DNA of 64,000 nucleotides from Candidatus Poribacteria bacterium (GCA_963663765.2 CAXXUA010000005.1:544001-608000), one strand, 5' to 3'; positions 37,363 through 63,246 are shown, numbered from the stretch's first letter. The notes: generated from the letters alone by a model not told the origin. Program-made: numbers and translations.

Positions 37363-40350
37363 CTATTCTTCAAGTGTAAATCGATGTACACCACTACCTA
37401 ATGTTCCAACATATAGTGTTTGACCATCAACATCAAAGCAGGCAATTTGATATGGAATCTCTGGTGTAACCTGCTTCCATTTACCTGTTTTTTCTTCTAT
37501 TTGAAATATTAACTTACCAACTTGACCGAATACCTTCGAGTCTTCAACAGCAAACCTATCTACAACGGGAGAAACCCCCTCTGTATCTGTGATAATCTGC
37601 CATTCAATTCCGTTTTTGGATCTCACAACACCCTTATCAGTTGCAACGTAGACGGTATTTCCGGCAATAGTAATATCATTGAATTGAACATCTGTAAATG
37701 GCAGTTTTGAAGTAACATCATTCCAGTTGTCTCCTTCATCAAAGGATAGCATAAGGTTTCCATCTCGTTTTCCAACATAAACAGTCTGACCGGAAACTGC
37801 AATTTTGAAACCGCTCGAATATGGATTAATGTTGTGATTATTATATATATCATAGTCAGTTTCATCTATCAGTTGCGTATTGTACCATTTAGATTCACCC
37901 GGCTTCCATCTTAAGAGTACCTTGCTGAATTCTATATAAACTGTAGAATTCTCTATAACGAAACTTCCAACCAGATATTTTATAGAATCATTTAGACTAT
38001 CTGGTATAATTTCGTTATATATTTCATTGAACTTTTCTGCATTGAAATGCATCGGATCAATCTTTTTTTCATTCTCAAGATTTTTCTTTCCATCTTCATG
38101 AAGAGTTTCAAGAAGTGCTTTGCTCATTTTTTTGCTTAACTCACTATTAAAGTCAGGAACACTAAAAGCAGGTATGTCAGGGACAGAACTCATACGATTT
38201 TCTTCGCTGAATTTGCGATATAAGTGAGGTGCAATGTCTCTTGTTCCTCTAGCATATAAAACACCGTTAGATTCAACTAAACTTATAATTTGTCCTGTTC
38301 TTCCTGCTATAGGCAACCAAGATTCCCCGCCATCTGAAGATGTTACCAGTTGATTACCATTGTTTGCATACAGGGAATCATTGACTGCAACTAAATTCTT
38401 CACATAACTATTTGCCATGCCTGTATTGAATTTTTGCCATGTTTTTCCAGCATTGTTGGTTCTGTACACTCCATCATTTCCCGCAGCATAGATTTGGTTA
38501 TCATTAAGAATTGCAACTGCAGGAGGAGTGTGTGTATTAACTAAACTTTCGGGAAAATTAATAATATTTCCTTTTCCATCATTTATGCAAAAACCGTATT
38601 CCGATTCACAAACCAAAAGATTGTCTTGGTATGAAGTTGTCTTGATCGTTGGAGATGTTTCTGTAACTGAGTTACTTGATACTGAATAACTACCTTTTCT
38701 TGGGTTCTTCATAGTCCTTTTCTCTAATTCAACTTTTTCCCAAGTCTTTCCTAAATTTGTGGAACAAAATATCAATAAGGACGGCTTAGCAGTCGTCATC
38801 ATTTGCATGAATTCTGAAGTTAATCTATTCTTTTCTTTTACACCTTCACCCACATAGAGTTTGTAATCCGCACTTGCCACAGAACGAATACTGTTGACTT
38901 TTCCATCTACAGGTATTAATTGCCATGTATCTGACTTTAGTCTATAGAGTCCAGAATCCGTCCCAATAAATACAGAGTTATCTATCGCGGTGATTGCGCG
39001 AATTTTCTTGTCCTTCAATTCCTTGCTCACAACATTCCATGTTTTTCCACTATCTTTGGATTGATATACACTTTTTTCCAATGCTAAATAAAGTGCTTTG
39101 TCAGTTAAAGCCATACCTGCAAACTTTCCTTCTGGTCGTGCACCTAATGAAATCCATGTCTTACCTTTGTCAATAGATGTAAATATTTCTTTGTATGATA
39201 CCACATAAAAGGTATCCTCACGTTCTATCATTTGCAACGCACTCTTAAAAGGCAGGTTAGAACTGATTAAATCCCATCTTTGTTCATCATTAGACAGTTT
39301 GTAGAGTGCCAAATCAGTTCCTGCATATAGCTCACCTTGTGTTGAATTGAAAAGTGTTCTTACAGGACCCCCTTCTGGTCCTTTTGTTTGAACCCAATCA
39401 CCTTTTATTCTTTGTGCTTCGTCTTCACTGGATTGTGCTGCAAATAGTGTCGTGTCTGAATTCTGATCAATACCGTTACCCTGTCCTATTTTAGTTAAGT
39501 TTCCACTTTGTGCTTGGACTGTCGGTTTTTCCGGATTGTCTATGACAAGTTGAGCTTCAGTAATTTCAATCGTCGGTGCAGTTTGTGCATTCAAACTATA
39601 GGGTTCTTGAAAATGAAACAAGTTTTGAGCACCAATACCAATCAGCAACAGGACGAAAATTGCAGATGCTGCAGAAATTGCTATGGGTAATAATGGCTTA
39701 GTTGTTGATGGAACAATTGGTTTTAGTTCGGTAATTTTCTGCATGATGTTTTCTGTGAGTTGTGTAGGCAGGTGGAAACTGCTCAAGTTTTCTTTAATCA
39801 TGGATTCCTCCTTCTTTAATCTATTGCGTGCGCGGTGTAGTCTACTCCGAACAGTATTTGGAGCTACACCTAAAAATTTACCAATATCTTCACATGTCAT
39901 TTCAGCAATGTAATAAAGATTTATTACCGTGCGTTCACTCTCTTTTAATTGACTGAGCAACTTCTGTACGATTGCACGTCGTTTATTGTTTACTGCATCT
40001 TCGCGTTGTTGTGTCATATATTCTGAGTAGTACACCTCCTCTAATTCAACTGGATCAGTATCTTCTAACGACCGTAGATTTAGCCTTTTCTTACGAAACC
40101 AGTTTTTACACTTTCTATCAGCGATAACATAAAGCCAACCCGCAAAGCGATTGTAGTGCTTGAGTGTCTCCAGCTTTTGATATGCTGTTAGGAAGGTATC
40201 CTGCGTAATTTCTTGCGCAACATGGAAATCACCAATTTTCTGCCAAGCTAATGCATGTATCTGTTTCTGGTATTTTTCCACAAGTGCAGCAAAAGCTTTA
40301 TCATTACCATCTATGGTTTGTTGAATCAAGTCAGCATCATTGCTTTTCAT
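37363..40350 (-). CDS. ECF sigma factor fused to a transmembrane helix and extracytoplasmic BNR/beta-propeller domain
   Basis: Sigma regions 2 and 4 (AQEITQDTF, TVRSRLHRAR); hydrophobic AISAASAIFVLLLIGI; repeated S.D.G.TW. Confidence 0.9.
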   Translation of the reverse strand: MKSNDADLIQQTIDGNDKAFAALVEKYQKQIHALAWQKIGDFHVAQEITQDTFLTAYQKLETLKHYNRFAGWLYVIADRKCKNWFRKKRLNLRSLEDTDPVELEEVYYSEYMTQQREDAVNNKRRAIVQKLLSQLKESERTVINLYYIAEMTCEDIGKFLGVAPNTVRSRLHRARNRLKKEESMIKENLSSFHLPTQLTENIMQKITELKPIVPSTTKPLLPIAISAASAIFVLLLIGIGAQNLFHFQEPYSLNAQTAPTIEITEAQLVIDNPEKPTVQAQSGNLTKIGQGNGIDQNSDTTLFAAQSSEDEAQRIKGDWVQTKGPEGGPVRTLFNSTQGELYAGTDLALYKLSNDEQRWDLISSNLPFKSALQMIEREDTFYVVSYKEIFTSIDKGKTWISLGARPEGKFAGMALTDKALYLALEKSVYQSKDSGKTWNVVSKELKDKKIRAITAIDNSVFIGTDSGLYRLKSDTWQLIPVDGKVNSIRSVASADYKLYVGEGVKEKNRLTSEFMQMMTTAKPSLLIFCSTNLGKTWEKVELEKRTMKNPRKGSYSVSSNSVTETSPTIKTTSYQDNLLVCESEYGFCINDGKGNIINFPESLVNTHTPPAVAILNDNQIYAAGNDGVYRTNNAGKTWQKFNTGMANSYVKNLVAVNDSLYANNGNQLVTSSDGGESWLPIAGRTGQIISLVESNGVLYARGTRDIAPHLYRKFSEENRMSSVPDIPAFSVPDFNSELSKKMSKALLETLHEDGKKNLENEKKIDPMHFNAEKFNEIYNEIIPDSLNDSIKYLVGSFVIENSTVYIEFSKVLLRWKPGESKWYNTQLIDETDYDIYNNHNINPYSSGFKIAVSGQTVYVGKRDGNLMLSFDEGDNWNDVTSKLPFTDVQFNDITIAGNTVYVATDKGVVRSKNGIEWQIITDTEGVSPVVDRFAVEDSKVFGQVGKLIFQIEEKTGKWKQVTPEIPYQIACFDVDGQTLYVGTLGSGVHRFTLEE

Positions 40351-40385
40351 TGCAAACCTCAAAACAAATTAGTCTTTAAATATAT

Positions 40386-40413
40386 AGACACAATTCTGGA
40401 GAAGATAATTGCA
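40386..40413 (-). promoter_or_regulatory. Candidate ECF-type promoter TGCAA-N18-TGTCT
   Basis: Related motifs at 53696-53724, 58098-58125 and 60769-60796. Confidence 0.45.
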
Positions 40414-40594
40414 TAATTTGCAAAATAATGTTTTTGTGGGAGAGTGGGAGGAATTTGGAAATAAAATTCATTTTGCAAAATGATAGTTCAATTGGAATAG
40501 TATTTTTCATATTTAGATGTAATGAAAACAGAAAAACCCCTATGCCTTACAGCACAAGACATAGGGGTTTGAATTATGAAAGGCCATTTAGCTG

Positions 40595-42043
40595 CTATTC
40601 CTTATCATCATCAGGATAATCAATTGCCCACTTACCGCGTCCCTCTCCGGTGGGAGGTTCTTGCCATAAAGCAAGGAAACGTTCTGGAGCGTTGTGTTCC
40701 AATAGATGCGCCATAAAAAGCTGATGAAGCTCAGTGATTAGGTCTGAATTATCTTCAGCAAGGTTATTCGTAGCAATTGGATCAACTGTCAGGTCAAACA
40801 ACTCAGGAGTTCCATAAGCACCAACAGGTGCATATCCCCATCGTTCAGTGACAAGGAACGGTGTCGTTGCTCGACGCGGGACAGTACCATTACGGGAACC
40901 TATATGTGTACCTGTAACAGCATATTCTCTGTGTTGACTTTCACCACTTAAGAGTGCTTCAGCAAATGACCGACCTTCAAAAGGTTTCGGTGGGTTAAGC
41001 GTAACACCTGCCAGATCACACAAAGATGGGAGTATATCCATGGGTTGTGCAATCATATCAAGCTGTTGACCTTGTGGAATATTATTTCCTGCTATCAAGA
41101 ACATCTGATGGTTGATTTCGGGATATGTAGGCCAAAACCGCGGATCTTCTGAATCAATGTTAGATTTTCCAGTTCTATCATGTTCTCCAATTGACATACC
41201 GTGGTCTGACATCACAACAACAATCGTGTCATCCCATAGTTCAAGGTCTTCCACCTTTTCAAGAATACGACCAATATGTCGGTCAACCATTTCTGATTCA
41301 CCAGCGTAGTGCGCCCAGAGGTTGTACAACTCTGCATCGGTGTAAATAGAGGAACGTCCATAGTTTGGATGAAGCATCGGTGCTCCAGAATAGTCAGGAT
41401 CATAACGTCTCACGATGTATTCGGGAGGATCCCACGGTTCGTGAGGATCAAAAAAGTCAACCCACAGGAAGAAAGGTCCTGAACGGTAGTTCTCTTCTAA
41501 GAATCGTATAGCGGTTTGTGATGTTCTCCCAGAAAACGTCTCCGCTTCATATTGATAATATCGGTTCGTCCAACGGTGCGTATTCGGTAAGGTGTTACCC
41601 CTAAAAGCTGGGTTTGGACGTGTCTTATTGTCAGGCATGATAGTCTGAATCTCATCGTTGAGATGTAGCAGAGGTTTGTCCCCCTCCTGCCCGCGATGTT
41701 GAAATGCAGCTTGAAAACCTTGTTGGAATCGTGCATTGAATAGATGCGGACAATCACAGATTAACTGTGTGGCATATCCCTGACCAGCCAAGAGTTTGGC
41801 GATATGGTTCGGTCCACTCAGGTCAATTGCTTGCCATCCATAGTGAGGCCACCCCAATGTACTGGTTGCGACATCCGTACGATGAGGAATTGTGGGGAAA
41901 CTGCTCATATAGAATTTATCTATAGCAGTAGCACGTTCAGCTTCAAATCTATCAAGCATCGGTGTTCGGATTGGCTTTTCTGCCCGTTCACCGAGGTTGT
42001 CATGACGAAATGTATCAGTAATTAGTAAGACGATATTTTTCAT
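40595..42043 (-). CDS. Sulfatase-like / alkaline phosphatase superfamily hydrolase
   Basis: ITDTFR.D, FDPHEPW and SDHG motifs; nucleophile motif reads T-I-P-H-R. Confidence 0.85.
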   Translation of the reverse strand: MKNIVLLITDTFRHDNLGERAEKPIRTPMLDRFEAERATAIDKFYMSSFPTIPHRTDVATSTLGWPHYGWQAIDLSGPNHIAKLLAGQGYATQLICDCPHLFNARFQQGFQAAFQHRGQEGDKPLLHLNDEIQTIMPDNKTRPNPAFRGNTLPNTHRWTNRYYQYEAETFSGRTSQTAIRFLEENYRSGPFFLWVDFFDPHEPWDPPEYIVRRYDPDYSGAPMLHPNYGRSSIYTDAELYNLWAHYAGESEMVDRHIGRILEKVEDLELWDDTIVVVMSDHGMSIGEHDRTGKSNIDSEDPRFWPTYPEINHQMFLIAGNNIPQGQQLDMIAQPMDILPSLCDLAGVTLNPPKPFEGRSFAEALLSGESQHREYAVTGTHIGSRNGTVPRRATTPFLVTERWGYAPVGAYGTPELFDLTVDPIATNNLAEDNSDLITELHQLFMAHLLEHNAPERFLALWQEPPTGEGRGKWAIDYPDDDKE

Positions 42044-42127
42044 GAATTATAATTCACCTATTAACAATTAATATTACTTATTTCTACCATGCTAAGATAA
42101 CTCCTCCTTTAAGTCAAATTAAATAAG

Positions 42128-42161
42128 AAAAGGCAGATACCTATAAAGATACCTGCCTGTC
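42128..42161 (-). terminator. Intrinsic terminator related to 31117-31158
   Basis: Minus strand ACAGGCAGGTATC-loop-GGTATCTGCC followed by TTTT. Confidence 0.65.
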
Positions 42162-42202
42162 CACTATTCTGACGGTAAAGAGATTATTGCCACGGATGTC
42201 TT

Positions 42203-42813
42203 CTATAACGATTGCATACATCCACAACCACTTTCATTACAGAGATCACAAACAATGTATAAATTTCTCGCTGTGATAAGTGTCAAGGGAACCGACACCA
42301 CTTTGTGTTTTCCTCCGATCGCGTGTATTAAATGTTTCCCTGTTGCCTTCGCATGTGCGTTTGGGTTGCTACCCAACTCATAATCCCACCCCTCAACATC
42401 TATTTCAACAAGTTCATATCTTGATATAGTCATCAGCCTATTGCCAAAGATTCAATTGCTGACCATTTTCTTCATAAACAATCTGTCGTGCGTTACTTTC
42501 TAAGGCACCTCGTTCGCGTATATACGCGGGGAAATGGAATAGGTGTTTTCGTAGTAACCCAATCATACCACTCCGTGACAACATCATCCGTATAACCGAC
42601 CGAAGTATGTGTCATCGCAAACAAAGGGAAATCAGTATCAGTACCACTCTTCGACGAATCTGTAAAAGCTGGTGGATTATAGCGTGATCCGTATGTAGTA
42701 TTCAACGTTAGTTCCATATAAGATAAATACCTATTTAGGCAAAAACCATAATAAGCTGTTGCGCCCAACAACACGACTATTAAAATTGATAATATAAAAA
42801 ATCTAACTTTCAT
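42203..42813 (-). pseudogene. Fragmented secreted protein gene
   Basis: GGAGG RBS and signal peptide at 42813; split into ORFs 42493-42813 and 42203-42433. Confidence 0.55.
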
Positions 42814-42825
42814 TTTTTAAGCCTC

Positions 42826-43008
42826 CTACGGTTCTTGTAGACCCAAATATTGATATGGGTCAATTGCTATCTCTTCTAAAGTATCAACTTTGACGTGTGT
42901 CGGAACTTCACTTTCATCTCTAAAAATCATTCCTGGTCGTAGCACATCAGGGTCACCTATTGCACCGACTACTATTTGCTCACCTTTTGAATTAGTAGCA
43001 TACTTAAC
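42826..43008 (-). pseudogene. C-terminal remnant of a hypothetical gene joined to the 32-bp repeat module
   Basis: Protein-like tail (..VPTHVKVDTLEEIAIDPYQYLGLQEP); its N-terminal part is repeat-derived. Confidence 0.5.
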
Positions 43009-43142
43009 AATACCTACGCCAATAATAGACATTCTGCCAGATTGTGCATGTAGTTGTAGCACATTCTGCCAGATTGTGCGGGTAGTTGTAGCACATTCTG
43101 CCAGATTGTGCATATAAATTATTCTGACAGATTGCTGATATA
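43009..43142. repeat. 32-bp tandem repeat module (2.6 units)
   Basis: ACATTCTGCCAGATTGTGC..GTAGTTGTAGC across 43029-43111; flanks match 13859-14088. Confidence 0.93.
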
Positions 43143-43313
43143 ACGACTTGTGCTAGTTAACTAAATGTTTATACTAAATTCACATATATTGGGTATGGTA
43201 TATAAACATTTCGTCCCTACGGGACTAAAGATCATCCAAAGCAAAAGAAGGACGGTTAAATCCTCTTGTCTATGTGAAGTAATTTTTAATAAATAGTTAT
43301 TTAGCACAAGTCG
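43143..43313. mobile_element. MITE family D
   Basis: ACGACTTGTGCTA...TAGCACAAGTCG; relatives at 46167-46338, single ends at 20376 and 49684. Confidence 0.8.
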
Positions 43314-43641
43314 CTACTTTCAGGCAATTGGTAATTTTTTCTGTACACGAATCTTGTCTATGACTGGGTTTTTCCGATCAAAAAAATACCAATTTTACCA
43401 ATTAGTGACTTAACGTAAATTGACTATAGTATGGACAATTTTCATCTTGTAGAAGTTGATTATTCAACAGAACGTCTATTTTTCTACGAGTTTCATATAT
43501 TTGTGAAACTGGAGAAAATGATGTGCTCCAGCGGAGTGTTATGTGCGGCTCCAACATACCGCTCCGCTGGAGCGGTATGTTGGCTGACAATGTGACTATA
43601 AACATATCGCTCCGCTGGAGCAAAGAAAGTTCCGTTTTGGT

Positions 43642-44063
43642 CAGGGTTATTCAGTTTTAAAAGTATTCTGTTATTTTGATTTACTGAAAGTTAATACCCA
43701 AATGCAGTTTCCTAACTGCACCTTATACATCAATTTTAGATTATTGAAACCTGAACATCGGTCTTTAGTGGTTCACTCGCTAAACATTTATCATGTAGAG
43801 AACGGACGGAATAGATCCAAAAGTCCCTCCCCCTTGATAAGAGGGGCAGGGGGTTTGGAAATTTAGGAATTTCAAACATAGAATACTAAAATTACTTAGC
43901 GAGTAAACTATTTAGTCCAGTAGGGACGATTTGTTTATAGAAAACGAGTGTCCATCCCAGTTCTTTAGTCCCTACGGGACTAAAGAACTGGACAAGATGG
44001 CAACACATAATATTAACGTTATAGTAAAATATTATCAAAAAAACCTAAAACTAAATAACCCTA
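43642..44063. mobile_element. Family-B MITE (inverted) with nested 142-bp MITE
   Basis: Inner element 43769-43910, TGGTTCACTCGCTAA...TTAGCGAGTAAACTA, with 5-bp TSD TTTAG. Confidence 0.85.
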
Positions 44064-44097
44064 TGTTTATCCTCTTTCTTGGAATATTCTGTTTTTC

Positions 44098-45024
44098 TTA
44101 TACCTCTTGTTTTGATGTTCTTAATAAGAGCATTGTAACAAATAACAATGGCAAAATGATAGAGATAGAAATCAGTAAAGAAACTTGCGCTCCAATAAAG
44201 CACGGAAAAAAGAGTATTGAACCTATCATTGACCCTTTCAACGCAAAATATCCGTTTTTTTCATTCGGTTGCAAATACAATGGGATGCGGGTAATTACAG
44301 CAACAAGCAAACCGAGTATGACCCATACGCCATAAGTATTATGGATAAGTGTTTCTTCTATCCAATAAGGTAATAGGGCTACTATAAAAGCTGCTATCGT
44401 TGCCGCAGCAGACAAGAACAGAGCAGGACGGATACCGAGTTGAACAGGTGTCGTTGTAATTCCGTGCTCTTTATCTCGTGAGAGATCTTTAAATGTCGTG
44501 GCAATATGTGTACCGATGTCATATAGTGTTGTCGCACCGAATGCATACCAAACCAACCGTGGAACATTCCCACTCACAACTAACGCACCGAATACGTTCA
44601 ACAACCCTATTCCCAAAGGCAATGTAATACTTCCTAATATCCCTCGCTCTTTAAAAAAGGCATTATATAAATGCGAAATTGCAACTAATGCCATCACCAA
44701 CGCACCTGCTTTTACGTTTAGCAGAAAACCACATAAGACGCAGAGCGCATAAATAACGCTTGCAGGAACCAAGGCTTGTTTCGGAGTTAATCGGTTTGAA
44801 GGCAGTGGTCTTTGAGGATTGGTAAACGCATCAGTTTCCCGGTGGAAATAATCGTTCTTGATCATTCCAGCAAAATAACCAAACAGGGCGATGGTAAGTG
44901 CTGCAGCCACACGCCATGTCATTTTTCCTTCACTGGCAATCAGTGCACCTGGAAGTGTTGCTGCTATTGGCATACCAAATAACGGATAGCGGATGAGTTC
45001 AAGGTAGGTTTTGACTCTGTTCAT
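44098..45024 (-). CDS. UbiA family prenyltransferase
   Basis: NDYFH...D....P.RPLPS and FKD...D motifs; multiple transmembrane helices. Confidence 0.9.
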   Translation of the reverse strand: MNRVKTYLELIRYPLFGMPIAATLPGALIASEGKMTWRVAAALTIALFGYFAGMIKNDYFHRETDAFTNPQRPLPSNRLTPKQALVPASVIYALCVLCGFLLNVKAGALVMALVAISHLYNAFFKERGILGSITLPLGIGLLNVFGALVVSGNVPRLVWYAFGATTLYDIGTHIATTFKDLSRDKEHGITTTPVQLGIRPALFLSAAATIAAFIVALLPYWIEETLIHNTYGVWVILGLLVAVITRIPLYLQPNEKNGYFALKGSMIGSILFFPCFIGAQVSLLISISIILPLLFVTMLLLRTSKQEV

Positions 45025-45027
45025 CGC

Positions 45028-46083: not shown

Positions 46084-46156
46084 ATCATGGTTTTATCATA
46101 GTTTTAGATATATGTCAAGGAAGGTCGCGCTTAAAGTCAGGGTCATTTTATTGTAT

Positions 46157-46945: not shown

Positions 46946-47030
46946 CAAAAATCTTACGAAAATGTATTTTGCTCTATTGAAAACGGTGTCAACATGCGAA
47001 AAATCCAGAATGTTCTTGAAATATTTAATC

Positions 47031-49762: not shown

Positions 49763-49782
49763 TTTTAAGCAAGGAGGAAACT

Positions 49783-50580
49783 ATGGTAAAACTTACGCAA
49801 GATGACATAGAGTTTTTCAAGAATGAAGGTTATTTAGTCAAACGCGACGTCCTAAACCCAGAACTAATGGAACGCGCACGAACAAGATTATGGGATGGAG
49901 CACCAGAGGGAAGACTTCGAGAGGACCCAGACACATGGGTTGGTCCCTTCAAAAAGGAAGAAGAGAACGAAGAAAACTCCAATCGGAGAAAAGGATTTAG
50001 ATGGAACTTCCGTGAACCCGGTGGGGAAGATTGGATGATAAAACTACTCGCTACCGATCCAAATGTCTGGCACATGGCAGAACAGTTCTTAGGTGAAGAA
50101 AACCTTGTGGAACCTAATCGCGTACGTGGAATCTATTGCACACTCCCTTATGGAAATGTCACAAAGAAATCAAGCGGATGTCATGTAGATGCACATCCAT
50201 TCCATCTTGGAGTTGTCGGTTATATTGATGACGTCCCCAAAGAAGGTGGCGGTTTTACAGTGTGGCCCGGAAGCCATAAGATCTTCTATTACGACTATAA
50301 ATCGCAGTATAAGAACGAACCGACACCACAATATGACATTGATCGTGAACGGCTTAGTAGAGAACTGGGTGTTGAATGTTATGGTAATGCAGGAGATATA
50401 GTCTTCTGGCATCATCGCATAGGACATGCAGCGGGACATAACTACTCCAGGCAGATACGGCAAGCCGTCATATACAGCTATAAAAAAACTGAATTGTCGG
50501 AAACACAAGAAGATCCACCCAACAAAGACATGTGGAGAGATTGGCCTGGTATAAAAGCGTTAGAGAAGACAGATACATAG
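49783..50580 (+). CDS. Phytanoyl-CoA dioxygenase (PhyH) family Fe/2OG enzyme, copy 1
   Basis: F...GYLV, HVD, GG..VWPGSH and GD.VFWH..IGH motifs. Confidence 0.9.
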   Translation: MVKLTQDDIEFFKNEGYLVKRDVLNPELMERARTRLWDGAPEGRLREDPDTWVGPFKKEEENEENSNRRKGFRWNFREPGGEDWMIKLLATDPNVWHMAEQFLGEENLVEPNRVRGIYCTLPYGNVTKKSSGCHVDAHPFHLGVVGYIDDVPKEGGGFTVWPGSHKIFYYDYKSQYKNEPTPQYDIDRERLSRELGVECYGNAGDIVFWHHRIGHAAGHNYSRQIRQAVIYSYKKTELSETQEDPPNKDMWRDWPGIKALEKTDT

Positions 50581-50686
50581 TCAAAAGTATTTATCAACTA
50601 ACATACAAGGTAGGCGTGGATCAGAACCCACACCTACCTTGTATGTTAGTTGATAAATACAAAGATGAAACCAGAATGTGTTAATG

Positions 50687-51003: not shown

Positions 51004-51056
51004 TTATTTGCATTTTCAGATAGAAAGCGTTATTATTTTTAAGCAAGGAGGAAACT

Positions 51057-51854
51057 ATGGTAGAACTTACGCAAGATGACATTGAGTTTTTCAAGAATGA
51101 AGGTTATTTAGTCAAACGCAACGTCCTAAACTCAGAACTAATGGAACGCGCACGAACAAGATTATGGGATGGAGCACCAGAGGGAAGACTTCGAGAGGAC
51201 CCAGACACATGGGTTGGTCCCTTCAAAAAGGAAGAAGAGAACGAAGAAAACTCCAATCGGAGAAAAGGATTCAGATGGAACTTCCGTGAACCCGGTGGGG
51301 AAGATTGGATGATAAAACTACTCGCTACCGATCCAAATGTCTGGCACATGGCAGAACAGTTCTTAGGTGAAGGAAGCCTTGTGGAACCAAAACGCATCCG
51401 TGGAATCTATTGCACACTCCCCTATGGAGATGTCATAAAGAAATCAAGCGGATGTCATGTAGATGCACATCCATTCCATCTTGGAGTTGTCGGTTATATT
51501 GATGACGTCCCAAAAGAAGGTGGTGGTTTTACAGTGTGGCCCGGAAGCCATAAAATCTTCTATTACGATTACAAATCGCAGTATAAGAACGAACCGACAC
51601 CACAATATGACATTGATCGTGAACGACTCAGTAGAGAACCAGGAGTTGAATGCAATGGCAATGCAGGAGATATAGTCTTCTGGCATCATCGCATCGGACA
51701 TACAGCAGGACATAACTACTCCAGACAGATACGACAAGCTGTCCTGTACGACTTTAGAAAAACCGAATTGTCAGAAACACAAGAAGAACCACCTAACGAA
51801 GATATGTGGAGAGATTGGCCGGGAATAAAAGCTTTGGAGAAGTCAGATACTTAG
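51057..51854 (+). CDS. PhyH family dioxygenase, copy 2
   Basis: Over 90% identical by eye to 49783-50580. Confidence 0.9.
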   Translation: MVELTQDDIEFFKNEGYLVKRNVLNSELMERARTRLWDGAPEGRLREDPDTWVGPFKKEEENEENSNRRKGFRWNFREPGGEDWMIKLLATDPNVWHMAEQFLGEGSLVEPKRIRGIYCTLPYGDVIKKSSGCHVDAHPFHLGVVGYIDDVPKEGGGFTVWPGSHKIFYYDYKSQYKNEPTPQYDIDRERLSREPGVECNGNAGDIVFWHHRIGHTAGHNYSRQIRQAVLYDFRKTELSETQEEPPNEDMWRDWPGIKALEKSDT

Positions 51855-51962
51855 TCATTAGTATTTATACATAAACATTAAAAGGAAGGCGCGGATCAGA
51901 ACCCACACCTACCTTTGTTATAATGTTGATAAATACACAGATGAAACCAGAATGTGTTAATG

Positions 51963-53657
51963 CTAATTCTGTCCCAAAACCTTCAGAAACTCAGGATCTT
52001 CCTTTACTTCTGAAAATTCAGGTGTTTCAAGGAAGGCAGGATAGTATCTTGCTTCATTCCAATAATTTCCGATGTAGTTTGAAGCAAGTTTCAAATTGTG
52101 CAGAGTCTTCTCTCGATCTTTCTCAGTTACCCAGATTGCGACAGCGAGCATGAAATACGCCCAATCGTTCTTATTTTGCAGATCAAGAGAGGTTTTTAAG
52201 AAACGTTTTGCTTCCTCATACTTCTTTGACCAGACGAGGCAACACCCGAAGTCATGAGCAGCCCAGATAAGATCACCCGTATTGACAGGATAACCAGCTC
52301 CATGTTTTTCGACTTCCAATTCAATAAACTTACTGAGGTCCGAAAACACTGAATCAAAAAGTACCCAGTCTTCCTGTTTACTGTAAATCAAGACTTTATT
52401 CGTTCTAATAGCCAACCAGAATCGGAAATAATGTTTCCAATCCTGATCTTTGTTAGCATGTTCTAACTTATCTAAGCCAAGAAGTGCATCCTCAAAAAGA
52501 TCGTTGTTTCGTAATACCTCTGCTCCAATTTGCAGAAAATCACAGCGGGAGTAGTCACTCACATCTTGGTTGACTAAACGTTCGGATGCCTCATCATGAA
52601 GTTGAATCCATTCTTCAATTCGACCTTCATCTTTCCAACATCCGGCAGCGTTCAGATTAGACATCACCTCTAATACATGCTTATCTGACATGTGCTGGCA
52701 TGTCCAACGGTAAAGCCGTGTATGCTCTTCAATAGTTTCTCGGTTTCTTTCCAAACAAGCAAGACTATTCACTAAGTTCTGATGTGCCCAGAAACGTTCG
52801 TCATCACTTGGTGCTTTGTCTTGATAATTTCGGAGTAGTGCAATCCGACTTTCCATTCCGATTTTTCCATAATGCGCGTAAATATCATCCACAGCAAAAT
52901 GCACCAACTCTTTTGTGATTTTTCCCTTGAGTGCCTCTTCTACCTCAACATAAGCTTCCTTAAGGATTTCCTCTCCTGAGAGAATATCATTCTGCGTAAT
53001 GGGATAAGATTCTACCTTTTCCATATACGCATTAAATTTGCTGCGAATGTCTTCCAATTTAACAGACATAATATCTCCTTTGTAACCACTCCAAATCTCA
53101 CGAATTGTATATTCCTCCTTCAGTAGACGTTTACGGGCGCGATGGAGCCGACTCTTGACCGTATTCGTTGATACACCCAAAAAATCGCTAATATCTGCAC
53201 ACGTCATGTCTTCAAGATAGTGTAACCTGATAGTGGTACGTTCACCCACTGGTAACTTTTGAAGAAGGTGTTTAACAACTTCGCGTTGTTGTTCAAACGC
53301 AATTTCCTTTTGCTGTTTTTCGTGGTACTTTGTATAAGCCAGTTCCTCTAATTCCCCAGCAGGCATGGTATCTAAGGACGTCATTGGAATCCGCTTTTTT
53401 TCATACCAAGCGTAACAATAACGAGCTGCTATCACATAAAGCCACCCAACAAAACTATTCTGATTCTTCAATGTGTGAAGTTTCTGGTGGACTCTCAAGA
53501 ATATATCTTGCGTGACTTCTTCAGCGATGTGGTAGTCACCGATTTTCCGCCATACGAAAGTGTGAACGGGCTTTTGGTATTTTTGCACAAGTACGTTGAA
53601 AGCAGATTGGTCACCTGCCAATGTTCGTTGAATCAATTGTGCGTCATCGTTTTTCAT
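51963..53657 (-). CDS. ECF sigma factor with long soluble helical/TPR-like C-terminal domain
   Basis: AEEVTQDIF and TVKSRLHRAR motifs; ~370-aa helical extension. Confidence 0.9.
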   Translation of the reverse strand: MKNDDAQLIQRTLAGDQSAFNVLVQKYQKPVHTFVWRKIGDYHIAEEVTQDIFLRVHQKLHTLKNQNSFVGWLYVIAARYCYAWYEKKRIPMTSLDTMPAGELEELAYTKYHEKQQKEIAFEQQREVVKHLLQKLPVGERTTIRLHYLEDMTCADISDFLGVSTNTVKSRLHRARKRLLKEEYTIREIWSGYKGDIMSVKLEDIRSKFNAYMEKVESYPITQNDILSGEEILKEAYVEVEEALKGKITKELVHFAVDDIYAHYGKIGMESRIALLRNYQDKAPSDDERFWAHQNLVNSLACLERNRETIEEHTRLYRWTCQHMSDKHVLEVMSNLNAAGCWKDEGRIEEWIQLHDEASERLVNQDVSDYSRCDFLQIGAEVLRNNDLFEDALLGLDKLEHANKDQDWKHYFRFWLAIRTNKVLIYSKQEDWVLFDSVFSDLSKFIELEVEKHGAGYPVNTGDLIWAAHDFGCCLVWSKKYEEAKRFLKTSLDLQNKNDWAYFMLAVAIWVTEKDREKTLHNLKLASNYIGNYWNEARYYPAFLETPEFSEVKEDPEFLKVLGQN

Positions 53658-54003
53658 GTTTCAGCTCCAAAAACATATCGTCTTTCATAATGTTAAGATA
53701 GGTTATAGAAGCGGGAGGGTTGCACAAAGTGTGGAATTTTGGAGATGAGACATATATAATACCATTTCTGATTGTTTATACAACAAAATATCTTAGGTCG
53801 GTGCAAGCATAACAACCTCCGACACATAAAATATTATTGAGTTTTCCGTGTCGGAGGTCGCAAACTCGTTCCGACCGACAAAATAGATATAATGGCTGTG
53901 TATGAATAAGAAATGTATAAAAACATTGATTTTTGGTTTGTGACGTTTGTCACCACGCAATTCATGTGAGATCTTGTTCAGTCAAAATTATGAATTTCAC
54001 ATA

Positions 54004-55706
54004 CTATTTTCCAAAAATATGCAGAAACTCTGGATCGTCCTTTATATCTGAAAACTCGTGTGTGCTACGAAAAGATGAATAGTAACTATCCATATAATTG
54101 TAGGCTTCTACTATATAGTAGTCCTGAGCAATTTTTAAATGATGCAAAGTTTTCTCGCGATCCTTCTTTGATGCCCAGATACTCACAGCGAGCATGAAGT
54201 GTCCATAATGATTGTTATTCCCCAAATCACTCGCAACCTGCAGGAATCGTGTTGCATCACTATACTTACCTAACCACACAAGGACACACCCTATATCATG
54301 AGTAAACCATATTAGATCACTAAGATCTACAGGTTGACCTGCTTCCATTTTTTCAACTCTACTTCCATATAGTAAGTAACTTCCGTAATAATTTCAATGT
54401 AACGTTCCCACTCCTTCTTTCTGGCATACAGTAGAAGTCGATTTGTTCTCACAGCCAACCAAAATCGAAAAAAATGTTTCCAATCTTGTTTAGTGTTCAC
54501 GCGTTCCAATTTCTCTATCTCTTGAAGTGCCTCATCAGTCCTACCGTTTGCACGTAAGACTTCTGCTCCCATTTGCAAAAAATCGCAGCGACTGTAGTAA
54601 CTCACTTCAGATTTATCTAAACGTTCAGATGCTTCAGTATATAGTTGGATCCAGTCATCAATTCTATTTTCAGCTGCCCAACATCCAGCACTATTTAGAT
54701 TAGAAATAATTTGCAAGACATCCTTATCAGGTAGGTTTTGGTGGCATGCCCACTTGTAAAGTCGAGTGTGTTCCTCAACAGCTTCTCGGTTCTTCCCGAG
54801 AATAGAGAGACTGATGACTAAATTCTCATGTGCCCAAAAACGTTCTGTATCATCTGGTGCATCATCCAAATATTTACGGAGTAAAGTCACACGTTTTTCT
54901 ATACCGAGTCTACCCATGTGTGGATACAAATTATCAACCACAAGATGTACTAATTCAGGTGTAATTTCGCCCTTAAGCGTATCTTCAATCTCTTTGGATG
55001 CATCCTTAAGAATACTCTCTCTTGATGTTGGATCAGATTTTACTTGTTCCATGAATGAATCGAACTTGCTGCGAAGTTGCTCTAATTGACTCATTATATT
55101 CTCCTTTAAATCATGGGGTATTTGTATTTGACCAAAGAATTCTTGATCTAACAGTTCCTGATCAGTTTGTAAACGTTTTCGTGCACGTTGGAGACGGCTG
55201 GTAATTGTATTTACCGACACTCCCATGAATTCACCAATCTCTTTTGTTGACATTTCGTCGAGATAGTAGTGTGTTACCACCGCGCGTTCTTCCTCTGGTA
55301 GTTTATCCAGTAGCTTTTGCACAAGCTCCTGGCAATACTCGTTTCTATCAGTTACCCACTGTTCCGCAATGTGATGAGTATAAGAGGCTTCCCCAATTTC
55401 TTCTGGATGAGTGGTCTCCAGAGATTGCATCACAGGCTTTTGCTTTCGTATCCAATCAATGCAAAGGTGTTTTGCGATGACATGAATCCATCCTGCAAAT
55501 TGGTCATGATCTTTGAGTGTAGACAATTTTTTATATGCCTTAAGGAATGTGTCTTGCATGATCTCTTCCGCATAGTGAAAGTCGTGTAACTTTCTCCATG
55601 CAAGCGCGTGAATGCTCTTTTGGTACCTTTCTACCAAGACACCAAACGCAGCCTCGTCCCCAGATAAGATTTTGCGTATCAATTTAACATCGTCATCTCT
55701 TTCCAC
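54004..55706 (-). pseudogene. Paralogous ECF sigma/TPR-like gene split by a 1-nt frameshift
   Basis: ORFs 54327-55706 and 54004-54348 together align with 51963-53657; break falls in an A6 run at 54348-54353. Confidence 0.8.
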
Positions 55707-55718
55707 AAGATTTTCCCA

Positions 55719-58040
55719 TTATTTCAGATATTCGTCGAACCAGTTTAGCACTCGTTCCCAATAATCGGCAAGTTTTTCATTTGACCAGAAGCCATGCCAG
55801 TGGTCTGCCTCCTTGTATTTCAATAACACAACTTCTTTCTCAAGATTTGCAAGTCCAATGAACATTTCCTGTGCTTGTTCAAAGGGTATGAAATCTTGAT
55901 CTCCGTGAATCAAAAGCAAAGGAGTTTCAATCTTATCCAGATGGAACACTGGTGAACCATCAATATAACGTTGTGGAAATTCCCATAAGGAACCACCCAT
56001 TCCAGCTTGTCCCGTCTCGTGCCAACCGGTACCAAGTCCACTATATAGGTATCCACTGATTAAGTTGCCTACAGATGCAGAAGCGACTGCTGCTTTAAAT
56101 CGCGTTGTTTGTGTGATAAGCACATTTACAGTATATCCCCCGAAACTATGACCGATGACACCCAACCGTTCTGCATCTATCTTTTTAGTCGCAATTGCAG
56201 CGTCAATTCCTGGAAGAATGACACTGGAAAACTGCTTGAACGGTTCAATCTTCGGGACGGGGAAATCGGGCAAGAAAAGCGCATAGCCTCGTGAGACAAA
56301 CATACCCGGATGTGCCCCCCCTATGTTCTCCCCGAAAGCAAATCTGTTGAAGGCATGTGAATGGGTGCCTCCTGCATAAGTGTTTACGATCATCGGGACA
56401 GGATTTTTCTCAGATGCCTCAGATGGTAGGACGAGGATCCCTTTAATTCTTTGTCCATCATCAAGGGTCCACTCAATAAGTTCGCTTGTGCCCAAGTCAA
56501 TTGTCTTTAGGTGTGGATTAGTGTCAGTAATTTGCCGCGGTGATTCAAAATTAGCATCACTCATCCAGATATTCTGCGGTTCTTGACTATTTTCCATAAC
56601 ATAAACAAATTCTCCAGTTTTCTCTGCAACATCTTGATGAAAGCGGCCTGCGTGAACATTCCGATGTTCGTCTTTGTACAAAAGTGTTATTGTGTCATCC
56701 CTGAGGTTCAGGCGATAGAAACCGTTATCATAAGTGTTTATTATGATGGCGTTATCTACCGTCAAGGGTGTATATCCTTCGCTTGGGTAAAAAACATCAT
56801 GAGCAGAAAACTCAAATTTTTCTGTCAAGTTTCGTATAGCGTCACCGTTCAGAGGTACTTTCCATATTTCACCTTTCGCGATGCATAGGAGTGCCTCGCT
56901 TTCTGCTGTCCAGAGTGCGGGTTTATATAATCGTCCAAGGTCAACGTCAAGGTCTTCTGTGAGATTGCGGACAATACCTGTTTCTAATTCAACAACGTAT
57001 GCATTCCCTGATGCTAATTTACCCCCCTCACCGCCTGTTGTCCATGCAACGTGTTTTGAGTCTGGAGACCAATTGACAGTAATTCCGTACGCAAGACGTA
57101 TCTTCCGAACAAGAGGTTCAATTTCCGTGGTGGAAGACTCACTTAACTCCTTTGGTAGCGGTAAGATGTAGAGATCAAAGATACGTTGTTGCACATCAGG
57201 TCTTTCATTTCCCAAGTTAACCGTAACAGCAACATGTTCCCCGTTCGGAGCAATATCAAAACTTCTGATCTCATACTCCTTCATCAACGAGAATGTTTTC
57301 CCGGTTTTAGTGTCAGCTATAACAAGGTTTTTGTCCGCTCTTCCTCGTTCTTTTCTTTTAGGTTGTTCGTTTTCCTGTGTTGATTCATCTTCTCGTTTTT
57401 GAAATCGTTTTTTGGGCCAGTCCCAAATTTCAACAAAGGAAGGTTTAGGCGAAATTTCTGATTTGTCTTCGACAGATTCCTCTTTGTTGGGGGCCTCTAT
57501 AGCAGAAATGGATTTGAAAAGAACAAACCGTCCATCTGGGGTCCATTTCGGCACCTCGAAGCCAAAGAACGTCCGAACGGTTGCCGATGTAAACTCCTGC
57601 ATGTCGTCAGATTCTCGGTTCCAGACATATAGATAAGGCTTACCCATGCGATCCGAGAAAAAGGCAAGACACGTTCCATCAGGAGACCATCTCGGTGCCC
57701 AACTTGAACCCCAATTCTGAGTGAGATTGCGATGTTCACCCGTTCGTGTATTCGTTACCCAAACCGTTCCGTACGCCATTTCTATCATCACACCTGTTTT
57801 AGAATATGCTGAGTTTCCACCGCCACCTTCATACTGCTCACGGTTCTGCGTGTTGTAGGCAATCCAGTTTCCATCGGAGGTAATATCAATAGGGACTCTG
57901 AAAATAAACTCGTTAAATTTTAGCAAATCTTCAAGTGTTAAAGGATTCAGATCTTCTCCTTCGCTAATGGTTGTTGATGTAGATACCACAAAACATAAGA
58001 GTAAACCATAGCAAATGTTAACAATGTTTTTGAAATTCAT
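55719..58040 (-). CDS. S9 family peptidase (prolyl oligopeptidase / acylaminoacyl peptidase)
   Basis: WSPDG propeller repeats; GHSFGG, HG..D and H catalytic motifs. Confidence 0.92.
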   Translation of the reverse strand: MNFKNIVNICYGLLLCFVVSTSTTISEGEDLNPLTLEDLLKFNEFIFRVPIDITSDGNWIAYNTQNREQYEGGGGNSAYSKTGVMIEMAYGTVWVTNTRTGEHRNLTQNWGSSWAPRWSPDGTCLAFFSDRMGKPYLYVWNRESDDMQEFTSATVRTFFGFEVPKWTPDGRFVLFKSISAIEAPNKEESVEDKSEISPKPSFVEIWDWPKKRFQKREDESTQENEQPKRKERGRADKNLVIADTKTGKTFSLMKEYEIRSFDIAPNGEHVAVTVNLGNERPDVQQRIFDLYILPLPKELSESSTTEIEPLVRKIRLAYGITVNWSPDSKHVAWTTGGEGGKLASGNAYVVELETGIVRNLTEDLDVDLGRLYKPALWTAESEALLCIAKGEIWKVPLNGDAIRNLTEKFEFSAHDVFYPSEGYTPLTVDNAIIINTYDNGFYRLNLRDDTITLLYKDEHRNVHAGRFHQDVAEKTGEFVYVMENSQEPQNIWMSDANFESPRQITDTNPHLKTIDLGTSELIEWTLDDGQRIKGILVLPSEASEKNPVPMIVNTYAGGTHSHAFNRFAFGENIGGAHPGMFVSRGYALFLPDFPVPKIEPFKQFSSVILPGIDAAIATKKIDAERLGVIGHSFGGYTVNVLITQTTRFKAAVASASVGNLISGYLYSGLGTGWHETGQAGMGGSLWEFPQRYIDGSPVFHLDKIETPLLLIHGDQDFIPFEQAQEMFIGLANLEKEVVLLKYKEADHWHGFWSNEKLADYWERVLNWFDEYLK

Positions 58041-58355
58041 TCTATTCTTCTCCTTTACGTAAAATTATCAATACGGTTCACACTCTCTAATATTTAAAGA
58101 CGAAGTTTTGATCAAAAAACGTGCAATATAGTTAAAAAGTGAAAAAAAGTTATTTATGGTAGAATTTTTGTGCGGAGAAATGATAAACCCGATTTCATAA
58201 TCTCAGGGTGAGAATAATTGAGATGTGTCTCAACGTATTTAATGGTGAAGCGGATGGTTCTCAATGGTATAAGTTTGTGCCTGATATAAGTGATCATGTA
58301 ATGCGCAAACTATTCCATAAATTATCTGTGATTTAATCACTTAGTTTTTTCTGTT

Positions 58356-59516
58356 CAGGACTTACGCACCTAACGGTAGGCGCGCTTTGAAAGCGCGCTG
58401 GAAACCAAAAAAATGCTGAAAATTACACCATTTTCGTCATAATTCTTCATCAAATCATGAAAACTGCGTAAGTCCTGCTGTTTATAGTTATTTCATAGAT
58501 GTTTCGTAGATTTTACAGGACTTACGCACCCAACGGTAGGCGTGCTTTGTAAGCGCGCCGGAAACCTAAAATATGCTGAAAATTACATCGTTTTCGGCTT
58601 AAGTCTTGATTGGATCATGAAAACTGCGTAAGTCCTGTTTTATAATTGACTTGACATTTTGAATAGTAGGAGGTAACTCCGATTTCCGACTATCAAAAGG
58701 TTTGGTCATGATTCTGAGATCGCTCCTACAGAAGAACTGACAATATATTCTCTATAATTCACGATAATTCTGTAATTTATAGTAGAATCCGAAAATATAT
58801 TTACACTCCGAGATAGGATCTCACATAACACGTTTGTAGGTGTTGGGTAACCCAACCCCATAAGCGTCAATTTAAGGATTTTCACCTCTTGTGGGAGGGG
58901 TTTTCAACTTAAGGATTTTCACCTCTTGTAGGCTTACAATTACCCATAAGTTTTTGGGTATAGTCCGTTAAGTCTTTTGTGGGTGCCTATTGCTTAAAAA
59001 CACCTGAAAACTGACCAATATTTTAGATGTAGCATACCGTTATAGTCCTTTTAGACAAGTTTCACAAGATTTTTAGTTCTTATGACCAGTTTTCTGTAAT
59101 CTATCGGGGTTAGAAACCCCTCCTACAGCAGCATGTCGTGCCTTTGTACCTCCAATTTGACTTATGGGTAAAAGTAAGCTTGTGGGAGGGGTTTTCAACT
59201 TAAGGATTTTCACCTCTTGTGGGAGGGTTTTTCAACCCCGATGTTTTAGCGCATTTCCGCTCAAATCGAGGTTTAAAAACCCTCCCACAAGAGAAATGAA
59301 AACAATATTTTCTTAAATTGACGCCTATGGGGCGGGGAGACCCCGCCCCTACGTCCAGTAACCAAAACTTTACACACCCTAGATTTTATAATTGACTTGA
59401 CATTTTGAGTTGTAGGAGGGAACTCCGATTTCCGACTGTCAAAGGGTTTGATAGTCGGGAATCGGAGTTCCCTCCTACAACTCAGGATGTAGATTTAATT
59501 GTATAATCCACCATAA
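58356..59516. mobile_element. ~1.2-kb stack and nest of MITEs and REPs
   Basis: Family A at 58356-58477 (TSD CTGTT) and 58516-58637 (TSD TTTTA); CATAAGCGTC element ~58857-59331 with nested element ~58930-59181; repeated block 58638-58706 / ~59383-59450. Confidence 0.85.
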
Positions 59517-59525
59517 ACGCGAAAA

Positions 59526-60746
59526 CTAAGTGTCTCTGAACATAGTTTTGGAATGAAATTCAGAGATGCTTTCAACACCATGGAGCAACATTTCATCGCT
59601 TAGACCGAACACCTCAGCTACTTTCAATGGACGATCTACCGTGTCAAGAAGCCTTTGGTTCGGCATAACAAGAACAGAATCAGCATTTTCGCGAAGTTCC
59701 TGCAGTCCTTGTTCTGCGCGTTCGGCGCGCCGTTCCCCTTCAAACATAAACGGACAAGTGACAATGCCAACAGTTAGAGCCCCTTGTTCTCGCGCAAGGG
59801 ATGCAATCAGAGGTGCAGCACCTGTTCCTGTCCCACCACCCATGCCAGCGGTAATGAAGACCATGTCCGCGTCCGCAACAATGTTATGGAGCGTTTCTCT
59901 GTCTTCCTCAGCGGCTTTTTTACCTATCTCTGGATTTGCGCCACAACCAAGTCCTTGCGTGGTGTTCGCACCGATCTGAACCGGTGTTGCGTCAGCGCAT
60001 GTATCCAATGCTTGTTGATCTGTGTTTACAACGTAGAATTCAATATCTGTCAAACCGGCACCTATCATTCGTTTGACAGCGTTCCCTCCCGCTCCACCGA
60101 CGCCAATAACTTTAATTTTCGTTCGGGTGCGTTTGGATTTATCTTGTTTAGATGACATAACTTTACCTCTTTCAGGTTCAACGTTGAACTCCTTACGTAG
60201 GAGTTCACGTGCCTGTCTTAATTTGGTTTTGATTGTTCCTATCGCTAATTCGAGTTCAGCGTGGATCTCTTTGACACTCCACAATTCCAGATAGTATAAC
60301 TCCGCGACGCGGCGCACTTTTTCTGGAAGATGATGCACTGCTTCATTTACTGCCTCACGAAGTTCTGTTTCTTGGAAACGTGTAACTGCGTTCTGATCAA
60401 TTTGATCGGTTAAGTAAGCATCACTGCACAGAATTTCACCCTTTGAATGGTGGCGAGAAACGTAGTACCTCTTGCAGGCGTTGTAAGCAATGCGGTGCAG
60501 CCATCCACCAAAACTCTCAAGGTTTTGCAGTCCGCTGATGTTTTCCCAAACAGAACGCCAGACATCCATGAGAATTTCTTCAGCGTCGCGGCGTTGTCTC
60601 GAATTTGTGATAATCACTTTCCAGATGCGTGGACTATAACGCAACATCAGTTCTGTCAATGCTGATTCATCTCCGATTTGTGTAAACTGGATGAGTTCTT
60701 CATCTGTCAGATCTGTGTACGTTGATAGATTGTCTCGCATAAACAT
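59526..60746 (-). CDS. ECF sigma factor fused to an FtsZ N-terminal GTPase domain
   Basis: Sigma regions 2 and 4 (DAEEILMDVW, GTIKTKLRQAR), then KIKVIGVGGAGGNAV, NTD, GLGCGANPEIG, GMGGGTGTG, PF.FEG..R. Confidence 0.92.
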   Translation of the reverse strand: MFMRDNLSTYTDLTDEELIQFTQIGDESALTELMLRYSPRIWKVIITNSRQRRDAEEILMDVWRSVWENISGLQNLESFGGWLHRIAYNACKRYYVSRHHSKGEILCSDAYLTDQIDQNAVTRFQETELREAVNEAVHHLPEKVRRVAELYYLELWSVKEIHAELELAIGTIKTKLRQARELLRKEFNVEPERGKVMSSKQDKSKRTRTKIKVIGVGGAGGNAVKRMIGAGLTDIEFYVVNTDQQALDTCADATPVQIGANTTQGLGCGANPEIGKKAAEEDRETLHNIVADADMVFITAGMGGGTGTGAAPLIASLAREQGALTVGIVTCPFMFEGERRAERAEQGLQELRENADSVLVMPNQRLLDTVDRPLKVAEVFGLSDEMLLHGVESISEFHSKTMFRDT

Positions 60747-63232: not shown

Positions 63233-63246
63233 GCTGTTTCTCCTTT

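Follow-up and report, generated by a model that had tools for sequence, protein, structure and literature searches.

Why would a gene for a sigma factor carry, at the joint with a second domain fused to it in frame, what looks like the start of another gene? The question is raised by a 64,000-nucleotide stretch of DNA from Candidatus Poribacteria (GCA_963663765.2, CAXXUA010000005.1:544001-608000; hereafter the window), in which four minus-strand open reading frames (ORFs), g1 to g4, each encode the core of an extracytoplasmic function (ECF) sigma factor and then, in frame and with no intervening stop codon, a second module (here called the cargo). At each of the four joints lies a Shine-Dalgarno (SD)-like string followed by an ATG. 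Comparison with relatives establishes that the fusions are old and conserved and, g1 aside, that the start signals are conserved at the nucleotide level and that free-standing cargo genes begin at the same Met. For fusions to a TPR-like cargo (g2 and g3), to the N-terminal domain of FtsZ (g4), and to DnaN (found in relatives), the account that we favor, and judge reasonably probable on this comparative evidence, is that sigma genes captured downstream genes together with their start regions, that selection has kept those regions, and that each gene gives rise to two proteins.

Four ECF sigma factor fusions in the window

The nearest relatives of the window are all Candidatus Poribacteria genomes, at no more than 90% protein identity. 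All four proteins match both Sigma70_r2 and Sigma70_r4_2 (Pfam) and score 70.7 to 103 bits against the ECF family model TIGR02937 (cutoff, 42.9); neither Sigma70_r1 nor Sigma70_r3 matches any of them at E ≤ 0.01, which is the domain content of ECF (group 4) sigma factors. For the sigma parts, scores stay below the cutoff of every equivalog and subfamily model, and the window contains no sigma genes besides these four. The tails that follow sigma4 are 210 to 810 amino acids long, and the architecture is kept in hundreds of clusters, placing the proteins among ECF sigma factors with a conserved C-terminal extension of more than 50 residues. Among the matches listed, the source names of such ORFs are only "sigma-70 family RNA polymerase sigma factor" or "hypothetical protein." A sequencing or assembly artefact was considered as the source of the fusions and rejected, since the frames are open across the joint in the related genomes examined.

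The longest of the four, g1 (37363-40362, minus strand; 995 to 999 amino acids), encodes the sigma core, a short linker, one hydrophobic helix, and a large beta-propeller region of the BNR/sortilin type (Pfam). In g2 (51963-53657, minus strand; 564 amino acids), the sigma core recognized by Pfam and TIGR02937 occupies residues 1 to about 190 and precedes a 368-residue TPR-like helical cargo. The neighboring g3 (54004-55706, minus strand) is a paralogue of g2 belonging to subfamily B of this type and is broken by a 1-nucleotide frameshift beside an A6 run, such that it comprises ORFs 54327-55706 and 54004-54348, the second holding the last 114 residues; the translations align with the g2 C terminus, and the frameshift may stem from a sequencing error in the homopolymer or mark a very recent break that has left a pseudogene. 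Finally, g4 (59526-60746, minus strand) joins the sigma core to a 210-residue FtsZ N-terminal GTPase domain, identified by a Pfam Tubulin match.

Pfam Sigma70_r4_2 ends at residues 182, 178, 179, and 183 in g1, g2, g3, and g4, respectively, and in each protein the first Met beyond it is the internal ATG (Met188, Met197, Met205, and Met197). The four minus-strand sites are AAGGAGGAATCC plus ATG in g1 (39799-39813, with the A of ATG at 39801), AAAGGAGATATT plus ATG in g2 (53067-53081, ATG at 53069), AAAGGAGAATATA plus ATG in g3 (55092-55107, ATG at 55094), and GAAAGAGGTAAAGTT plus ATG in g4 (60156-60173, ATG at 60158). Their duplex energies are -12.2, -8.9, -8.8, and -7.1 kcal/mol, all computed against the generic anti-SD sequence ACCUCCUUU, not against one read from the 16S rRNA of this organism; despite its energy, the g1 site is a doubtful start, as discussed below.

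A sequence-only reading of this DNA had reported the strings, coordinates, and strand of the four sites exactly as we find them, together with the peptides KEESM, KGDIM, KENIM, and ERGKVM, the unlike codon registers in which the SD strings fall, and the position of each ATG just after region 4. Its description of the fusions needs some refinement. All four are real, yet they are not independent, as g2 and g3 are paralogues and the window therefore offers three cases rather than four. Of the cargos that it named, the helix plus propeller of g1 is present, with a propeller of the BNR/sortilin type; the TPR likeness of g2 and g3 holds at the level of the fold, without a Pfam TPR match; and the FtsZ of g4 is the N-terminal GTPase domain only.

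SD-like strings of this strength are uncommon inside genes of the window: among 209 internal in-frame ATGs in its 37 ORFs of at least 200 codons, 11 have an anti-SD duplex of -7.1 kcal/mol or lower, and 4 of these 11 are the sites in g1 to g4. Given the encoded peptides, the codon bias at the four sites is mild, and the window alone could not, therefore, settle the question. A -10 promoter box (TATAAT) inside the g3 string was also considered and rejected, the relatives having AATATT or AACATC at that place.

Start signals at the joints of related sigma fusions

One scan of species-representative genomes with the g2 cargo yielded 75 Poribacterial loci. A sigma-domain hidden Markov model was run on all ORFs of at least 140 codons in these loci and in the window, giving 158 sigma ORFs; no Met was demanded at the joint, and unique sequences were counted. 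For fusions of the TPR type, a start was scored where an ATG or GTG with an SD of -7 kcal/mol or lower lay 3 to 12 codons ahead of the first conserved cargo motif, and random anchors in other ORFs served as the control. By this rule, a start codon with its SD was present at the joint in 114 of 116 unique TPR-like fusion genes (ATG in 110 and GTG in 4), against 38 of 4,000 control positions. One of the two misses had been mis-anchored and does carry GGAGGAGAACATA-ATG, and the other retains GGAG at -6.4 kcal/mol. Of the 91 TPR-type genes scored, 83 have 5 to 9 nucleotides between GGAG and the start codon; in the other 8 the gap is 2 to 3 nucleotides, and for most of these the script had placed the start one codon ahead of the ATG. 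As background, GGAG stands 5 to 9 nucleotides ahead of an in-frame internal ATG in 27 of 4,338 cases in the other ORFs of the loci.

The same feature marks two further cargo types. All 17 unique fusions to the FtsZ N-terminal domain have an ATG at the joint, with energies from -7.1 to -11.0 kcal/mol, and both sigma-DnaN fusions have an ATG after AACGGAG (-10.2 and -6.6 kcal/mol). The membrane/propeller type to which g1 belongs behaves differently, with no start assigned in the census for any of its six fusions.

The putative start region of the TPR-like cargo

Searches with the g2 cargo return 507 homologues at E ≤ 1e-3; the best 120 listed are 559 to 579 amino acids long and carry sigma domains, except for nine of 336 to 529 amino acids. 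Modeled alone, the g2 cargo is predicted to be all alpha, with 20 helices (predicted local distance difference test [pLDDT], 91.3; predicted template modeling score [pTM], 0.85), and the model resembles TPR/PPR solenoids and the NprR sensor with template modeling scores of 0.4 to 0.56. A language-model search with the cargo also points toward TPR proteins. No Pfam TPR model matches g2 or g3 at E ≤ 0.01, so the likeness is one of fold only. The model of full-length g2, whose pTM of 0.58 implies no confident arrangement of the two domains, has pLDDT below 50 at residues 189 to 194 and begins the first cargo helix at residue 196, suggesting that the SD lies in a disordered linker.

The SD core persists through changes in the peptide that it encodes. 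For statistics on the core and its codons we used an alignment of 75 TPR-type genes, in all of which GGAG is present, although it is read in different registers: AAA-GGA-GAT (KGD) in subfamily A and AAG-GAG-AAY (KEN) in subfamily B. The subfamily B string is CTG AAG GAG AAY ATY ATG, in which Lys is always encoded by AAG (46 of 46) and GAG is likewise used throughout (49 of 49). The core is retained through the replacements D to A, D to E, K to Q, K to E, K to M, N to D, and N to T, and the spacer to the start codon varies by whole codons. Where Val replaces Met at the joint, the codon is GTG in all four genes and AAGGAG is intact. The SD codons are fully invariant, a state shared by only 11 of 220 conserved degenerate columns in subfamily B and 33 of 267 in subfamily A. 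With the peptide held fixed, about 3 to 5% of synonymous recodings of NLKENI reach the observed SD strength, and among distinct junction strings P is below 0.5 in 42 of 42 and below 0.1 in 22 of 42. At the level of the mRNA, TPR-type genes are most open around the internal ATG: of 91 positions, the 40-nucleotide segment that has this ATG at its center shows the weakest folding (-2.54; gene mean, -5.33; standard deviation, 1.13; n = 75).

One alternative is that the string acts as a pause site, slowing ribosomes at the domain boundary such that the sigma part folds before the cargo emerges, with no initiation taking place. Pausing at SD-like sequences has been proposed, and later disputed, in Escherichia coli. 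The string does lie exactly at the boundary, in what appears to be a flexible linker. Pausing, however, requires neither an ATG or GTG 5 to 9 nucleotides downstream nor an open mRNA, both of which are conserved here, and it leaves unexplained why free-standing cargo genes start at that very Met. We regard this explanation as very unlikely.

A second alternative is that the SD and ATG are mere leftovers of capture, which persist because the lineages are close and because the linker peptide, with its many Gly, Glu, Lys, and Arg residues, is under mild constraint, the fusion being the sole product. Several observations fit this explanation and weigh against ongoing selection for a second start. 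Identity at four-fold degenerate sites is 0.62 to 0.63 within subfamilies and 0.45 between them, compared with 0.27 at saturation, so synonymous sites are unsaturated and part of the nucleotide conservation reflects shared ancestry. Ten codons upstream, at the Lys-Glu-Glu with which region 4 closes, 24 of 26 subfamily A genes retain GAG-GAA even though it is not followed by a start codon; this nearby SD-like string serves as a control and indicates that conserved purine-rich codons can arise without start function. The recoding of synonymous codons that the sequence-only reading had proposed as a check gave, in the window, a proportion of recodings at least as strong as the native string of 0.026 for g1, 0.109 for g2, 0.049 for g3, and 0.371 for g4, a mild SD bias only; with the peptide held fixed, FtsZ-type genes show a modest bias (median P, 0.17; range, 0.03 to 0.42). 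Distant sigma fusions to a TPR-like cargo have no Met at the joint in two cases (P0410 and P0449) and Mets nearby in two others (P0395 and P0414); from their sequences, all four look like products of other, GC-rich organisms. The energies throughout depend on the generic anti-SD noted above, and the number of Mets in the 75-gene alignment carries no weight, since its members were picked with a pattern that starts with M.

Set against the leftover explanation, the core has outlasted a change of register between subfamilies and seven kinds of amino acid replacement, in a disordered linker where constraint on the peptide should be low. Met has given way only to Val encoded by GTG, in four of four cases; the site is the least-folded position of the mRNA; and the same feature recurs in three cargo types and two sigma lineages. 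On balance, we consider a relic without function unlikely, and retention of the start region by selection remains the account that we prefer for the TPR-like type.

A separate observation concerns L032:8029-9204 and similar genes in L037, L044, and L049, which encode a homologue of the TPR-like cargo after some 30 hydrophobic residues and have no sigma domain. L032:8029-9204 keeps GAGGGAGAAAAT-ATG at the homologous Met; either that Met is the true start of the gene, or a third kind of N-terminal module sits on the same cassette.

Half an FtsZ as cargo

The cargo of g4 matches Pfam Tubulin (PF00091) with an E value of 8e-48, as expected for the GTP-binding N-terminal domain of FtsZ. It aligns to residues ~15 to 202 of solved FtsZ structures (E, 2e-61), including the nucleotide-binding loops and, in the alignment to Staphylococcus aureus FtsZ, the motif GGGTGTG, and only nine residues follow. 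Against TIGR00065, the ftsZ equivalog, it covers positions 8 to 205 of 353 and scores 269 bits, below the cutoff of 295; positions 206 to 353 are absent. The protein thus ends after helix H7 and, unlike FtsZ itself, lacks the T7 loop and the C-terminal domain. The T7 loop (GXXNXD) and C-terminal domain of one FtsZ subunit are described in PMC8456036 as needed to activate GTP hydrolysis in the neighboring subunit. A nucleotide-binding domain with H7 and no T7 loop could accordingly be able to join an FtsZ filament at one end without extending it, judging from the domain content of the g4 cargo.

Truncation to a pseudogene was considered for g4 and rejected. All 16 orthologues in the fetched loci end at the same point, and at least 120 clusters share the architecture. 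These homologues are 399 to 443 amino acids long, carry PF00091 and the sigma domains, and are 72 to 100% identical.

In genes of this type, the peptides ahead of the Met vary (EGVRI, ERGGT, IREGI, KRGRT, IGGNA, ERGTT, and KKGRP), and a G-rich core is present in all. The internal SD is stronger than the best SD for a 5' start in 16 of 16 genes, and as in TPR-type genes there is a least-folded signal in the mRNA, here at +15 and +30.

The FtsZ part of g4 is followed by 1.5 kb of repeat-rich noncoding DNA. This segment (58040-59526) has no ORF of more than 59 codons and is dense in direct and inverted repeats, among them a 129-nucleotide pair, a 67-nucleotide element present three times (once inverted), and GC-rich palindromes of 45 nucleotides, the whole resembling a cluster of small repeat elements.

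g1 is probably a membrane-tethered sigma factor

The strongest duplex of all belongs to g1, at -12.2 kcal/mol and with P = 0.026 under synonymous recoding, and the comparison with its relatives nevertheless leads elsewhere. At E ≤ 1e-3, g1 has 677 homologues; the best 120 listed are 560 to 1,085 amino acids long, mostly about 1,000, and the source names shown are all Candidatus Poribacteria. The AAGGAGG of g1 encodes the family-wide Lys-Glu-Glu that ends region 4, and the same codons are equally kept in g2-type genes, where no start follows. At the joint, 23 of 26 close homologues retain Met, 2 have Val, and 1 has Ile. In all four distant paralogues of the propeller type, ATC stands in place of the Met codon, two of them having AAGGAAGAA as well, and, as noted above, no membrane-type fusion was assigned a start in the census. 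For g1 in particular, we therefore lean slightly toward chance and peptide composition as the explanation, AAGGAGG being just a run of Lys-Glu-Glu codons and the Met an ordinary hydrophobic residue of the linker; the strength of the duplex and the retention of Met in most close homologues are the points that speak for a start. From its predicted domains, g1 is probably a membrane-tethered sigma factor with a sensor on the outside, the SD-like string being a by-product of the Lys-Glu-Glu codons.

Free-standing cargo genes begin at the Met of the joint

If the cargos were once separate genes, the internal Met should correspond to the beginning of a protein. One case is a fusion type found outside the window, in which a sigma factor is joined to a complete DnaN beta clamp (L054:3396-5132 and, in part, L031:1-1483). 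L054:3396-5132 matches PF00712, PF02767, and PF02768, the three beta-clamp domains, and scores 229 bits against TIGR00663 (dnaN; cutoff, 137.65), covering positions 1 to 365 of 367 from residue 215 onward. Position 1 of TIGR00663 falls exactly on the internal Met of the fusion.

Free-standing genes for the FtsZ N-terminal domain likewise start at the homologous Met (L021:15145-15777 and L002:8423-9091), and the first of these lies directly after a sigma-FtsZ fusion. Both encode a "half FtsZ" of 210 to 222 amino acids, consisting of the GTPase domain only, with no T7 loop, and belong to a Poribacterial family. The TPR-like cargo family is wider still, with many free-standing members of ~350 to 390 amino acids that match from their N termini (P0363, P0364, P0366, P0368, P0369, and P0378).

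A tree of the sigma domains groups the DnaN and membrane/propeller types with TPR-like subfamilies A and B in a single lineage, in which the propeller type, including g1, is sister to A; the fusions to FtsZ make up a distinct clade on a long branch, and plain ECF sigma factors lie apart. The linkers show homologies of their own: KEEHTIREIWGG of subfamily A pairs with KEEHIVREVLGG of the propeller type, and LSDNLKENIM of subfamily B with LPTQLTENIM of g1, which fits an exchange of cargos just after the linker.

The sequence-only reading had offered two alternatives: either a sigma cassette captures whole genes by reading through their 5' regions, or each gene makes two products, the second being, for example, its own anti-sigma factor. 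Capture is borne out by the free-standing genes and by TIGR00663. No anti-sigma family in Pfam matches any of g1 to g4 at E ≤ 0.01, and none of the results obtained bears out the combinatorial signaling system that the same reading envisaged. Together, the data support the view that capture and two products are successive stages rather than rivals. The nucleotide-level conservation that it saw behind the differing peptides is upheld for the TPR-like and FtsZ N-domain types, in which GGAG survives the change of register and the replacements, and is doubtful for g1.

Comparison with known systems

ECF sigma factors with C-terminal extensions have been reported in 19 groups (PMC7826278). Like g1 to g4, members of ECF41 (with a SnoaL-like extension), ECF42 (TPR), and ECF238 (a Cys-rich tail) combine the sigma2-sigma4 core and an extra domain in one polypeptide, and the g2 and g3 cargos are TPR-like in fold. 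The main text of PMC7826278 describes no internal start in these groups, in contrast to the g2, g3, and g4 types, and it does not mention FtsZ, tubulin, or Poribacteria, although the group descriptions in its supplements may bear on this. Also in contrast to known ECF extensions, the cargos here include paralogues of core cell cycle proteins, the FtsZ N-terminal domain and DnaN.

Internal starts at domain boundaries are known from E. coli, where, as here, an SD-like sequence and a start codon at the boundary are conserved in orthologues (ArcB/ArcB-C, rpnE-C, infB, clpB, and mrcB; bioRxiv 10.1101/520783). The internal GUG of ArcB-C, with its SD at a domain boundary, is a demonstrated case, and the internal product rpnE-C matches a separate gene, ypaA (bioRxiv 10.1101/520783). 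A free C-terminal domain is made in these cases, one of which also exists as a separate gene, much as the cargos do here. The E. coli products were seen by ribosome profiling and Western blotting (bioRxiv 10.1101/520783), whereas the sites described here are known from sequence comparison; unlike the E. coli cases, the hosts here are sigma fusions, and the feature is common to several families in one genome.

Anti-sigma factors are typically encoded at position +1 relative to the sigma gene (PMC7826278). A sigma/anti-sigma operon consists of a sigma gene and then a partner gene, each with its own start signals, and the fusions look like such a pair minus the stop codon; they differ from it in having no stop between the parts and in having cargos without a Pfam anti-sigma domain.

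Literature searches, in whose scope the ECF-group supplements of PMC7826278 did not fall, returned no report of sigma-FtsZ or sigma-DnaN fusions or of internal starts in sigma fusions. The combination described here, its conservation over several sigma-fusion families in one phylum, and the half-FtsZ and DnaN cargos were not found in print.

Other features of the window

The sigma fusions lie within a partly syntenic island that includes DUF5694, DUF4252/CBM9, and an S9 peptidase gene (window 60854-63768; loci L001 to L054, from many Poribacteria genomes), and this island often holds several sigma fusions on one strand. Between the fusions in the window, the plus strand carries a tandem pair of phytanoyl-CoA dioxygenase (PhyH) genes that are almost identical (49783-50580 and 51057-51854). 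Elsewhere, a gene for a Fic-domain protein is flanked by two IS200/IS605-type TnpB (OrfB) genes and a Y1 transposase (2455-7307), and an Rfam match to transfer-messenger RNA (tmRNA), above the gathering score, spans model positions 1 to 374 in only 86 nucleotides (403-488); it is probably a partial or split tmRNA.

Conclusions

Under the account that we prefer for the TPR-like, FtsZ N-domain, and DnaN types, an ECF sigma gene would have absorbed the gene downstream of it by read-through, ribosome-binding site and start codon included, and the internal start region would still be under selection. A weak 5' start would then give the full sigma-cargo fusion, and the internal SD with its ATG or GTG, at which the comparison of relatives points to initiation, would give free cargo. 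A second protein product from each gene is likely on the same comparative grounds. The free cargo might act with the fusion or against it, either in mixed assemblies (FtsZ polymers, DnaN rings, or TPR scaffolds) or as a rival for a shared partner, and in this way set the activity of the tethered sigma factor.

A more far-reaching version, which as a whole we consider quite unlikely, would see these as "two-in-one" sigma genes, each specifying a sigma-X fusion along with X on its own. X would be a self-assembling copy of a cell cycle component or a scaffold: an FtsZ half of the capping type, a subunit of the DnaN clamp, or a TPR scaffold. By co-assembling with X, or with the housekeeping FtsZ or clamp, the fusion would hold its sigma factor on division filaments or DNA-loaded clamps, and the ratio of the two starts would set the amount of free sigma, wiring transcription to the state of division or replication without an anti-sigma factor.

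Sigma factors with built-in sensor domains represent a major and poorly understood form of transcription control in bacteria. Where an SD and start codon are conserved at the joint between domains, they offer a means of detecting captured genes and hidden second products in genomes that are inaccessible at the bench. If it is true that one gene gives both a tethered and a free partner domain, the balance between its two start sites would be a hard-wired regulatory setting, and a new design principle for this class of regulators. The sigma-FtsZ and sigma-DnaN fusions, for their part, suggest that, in an uncultured phylum associated with sponges, transcription is directly linked to the machinery of division and replication.

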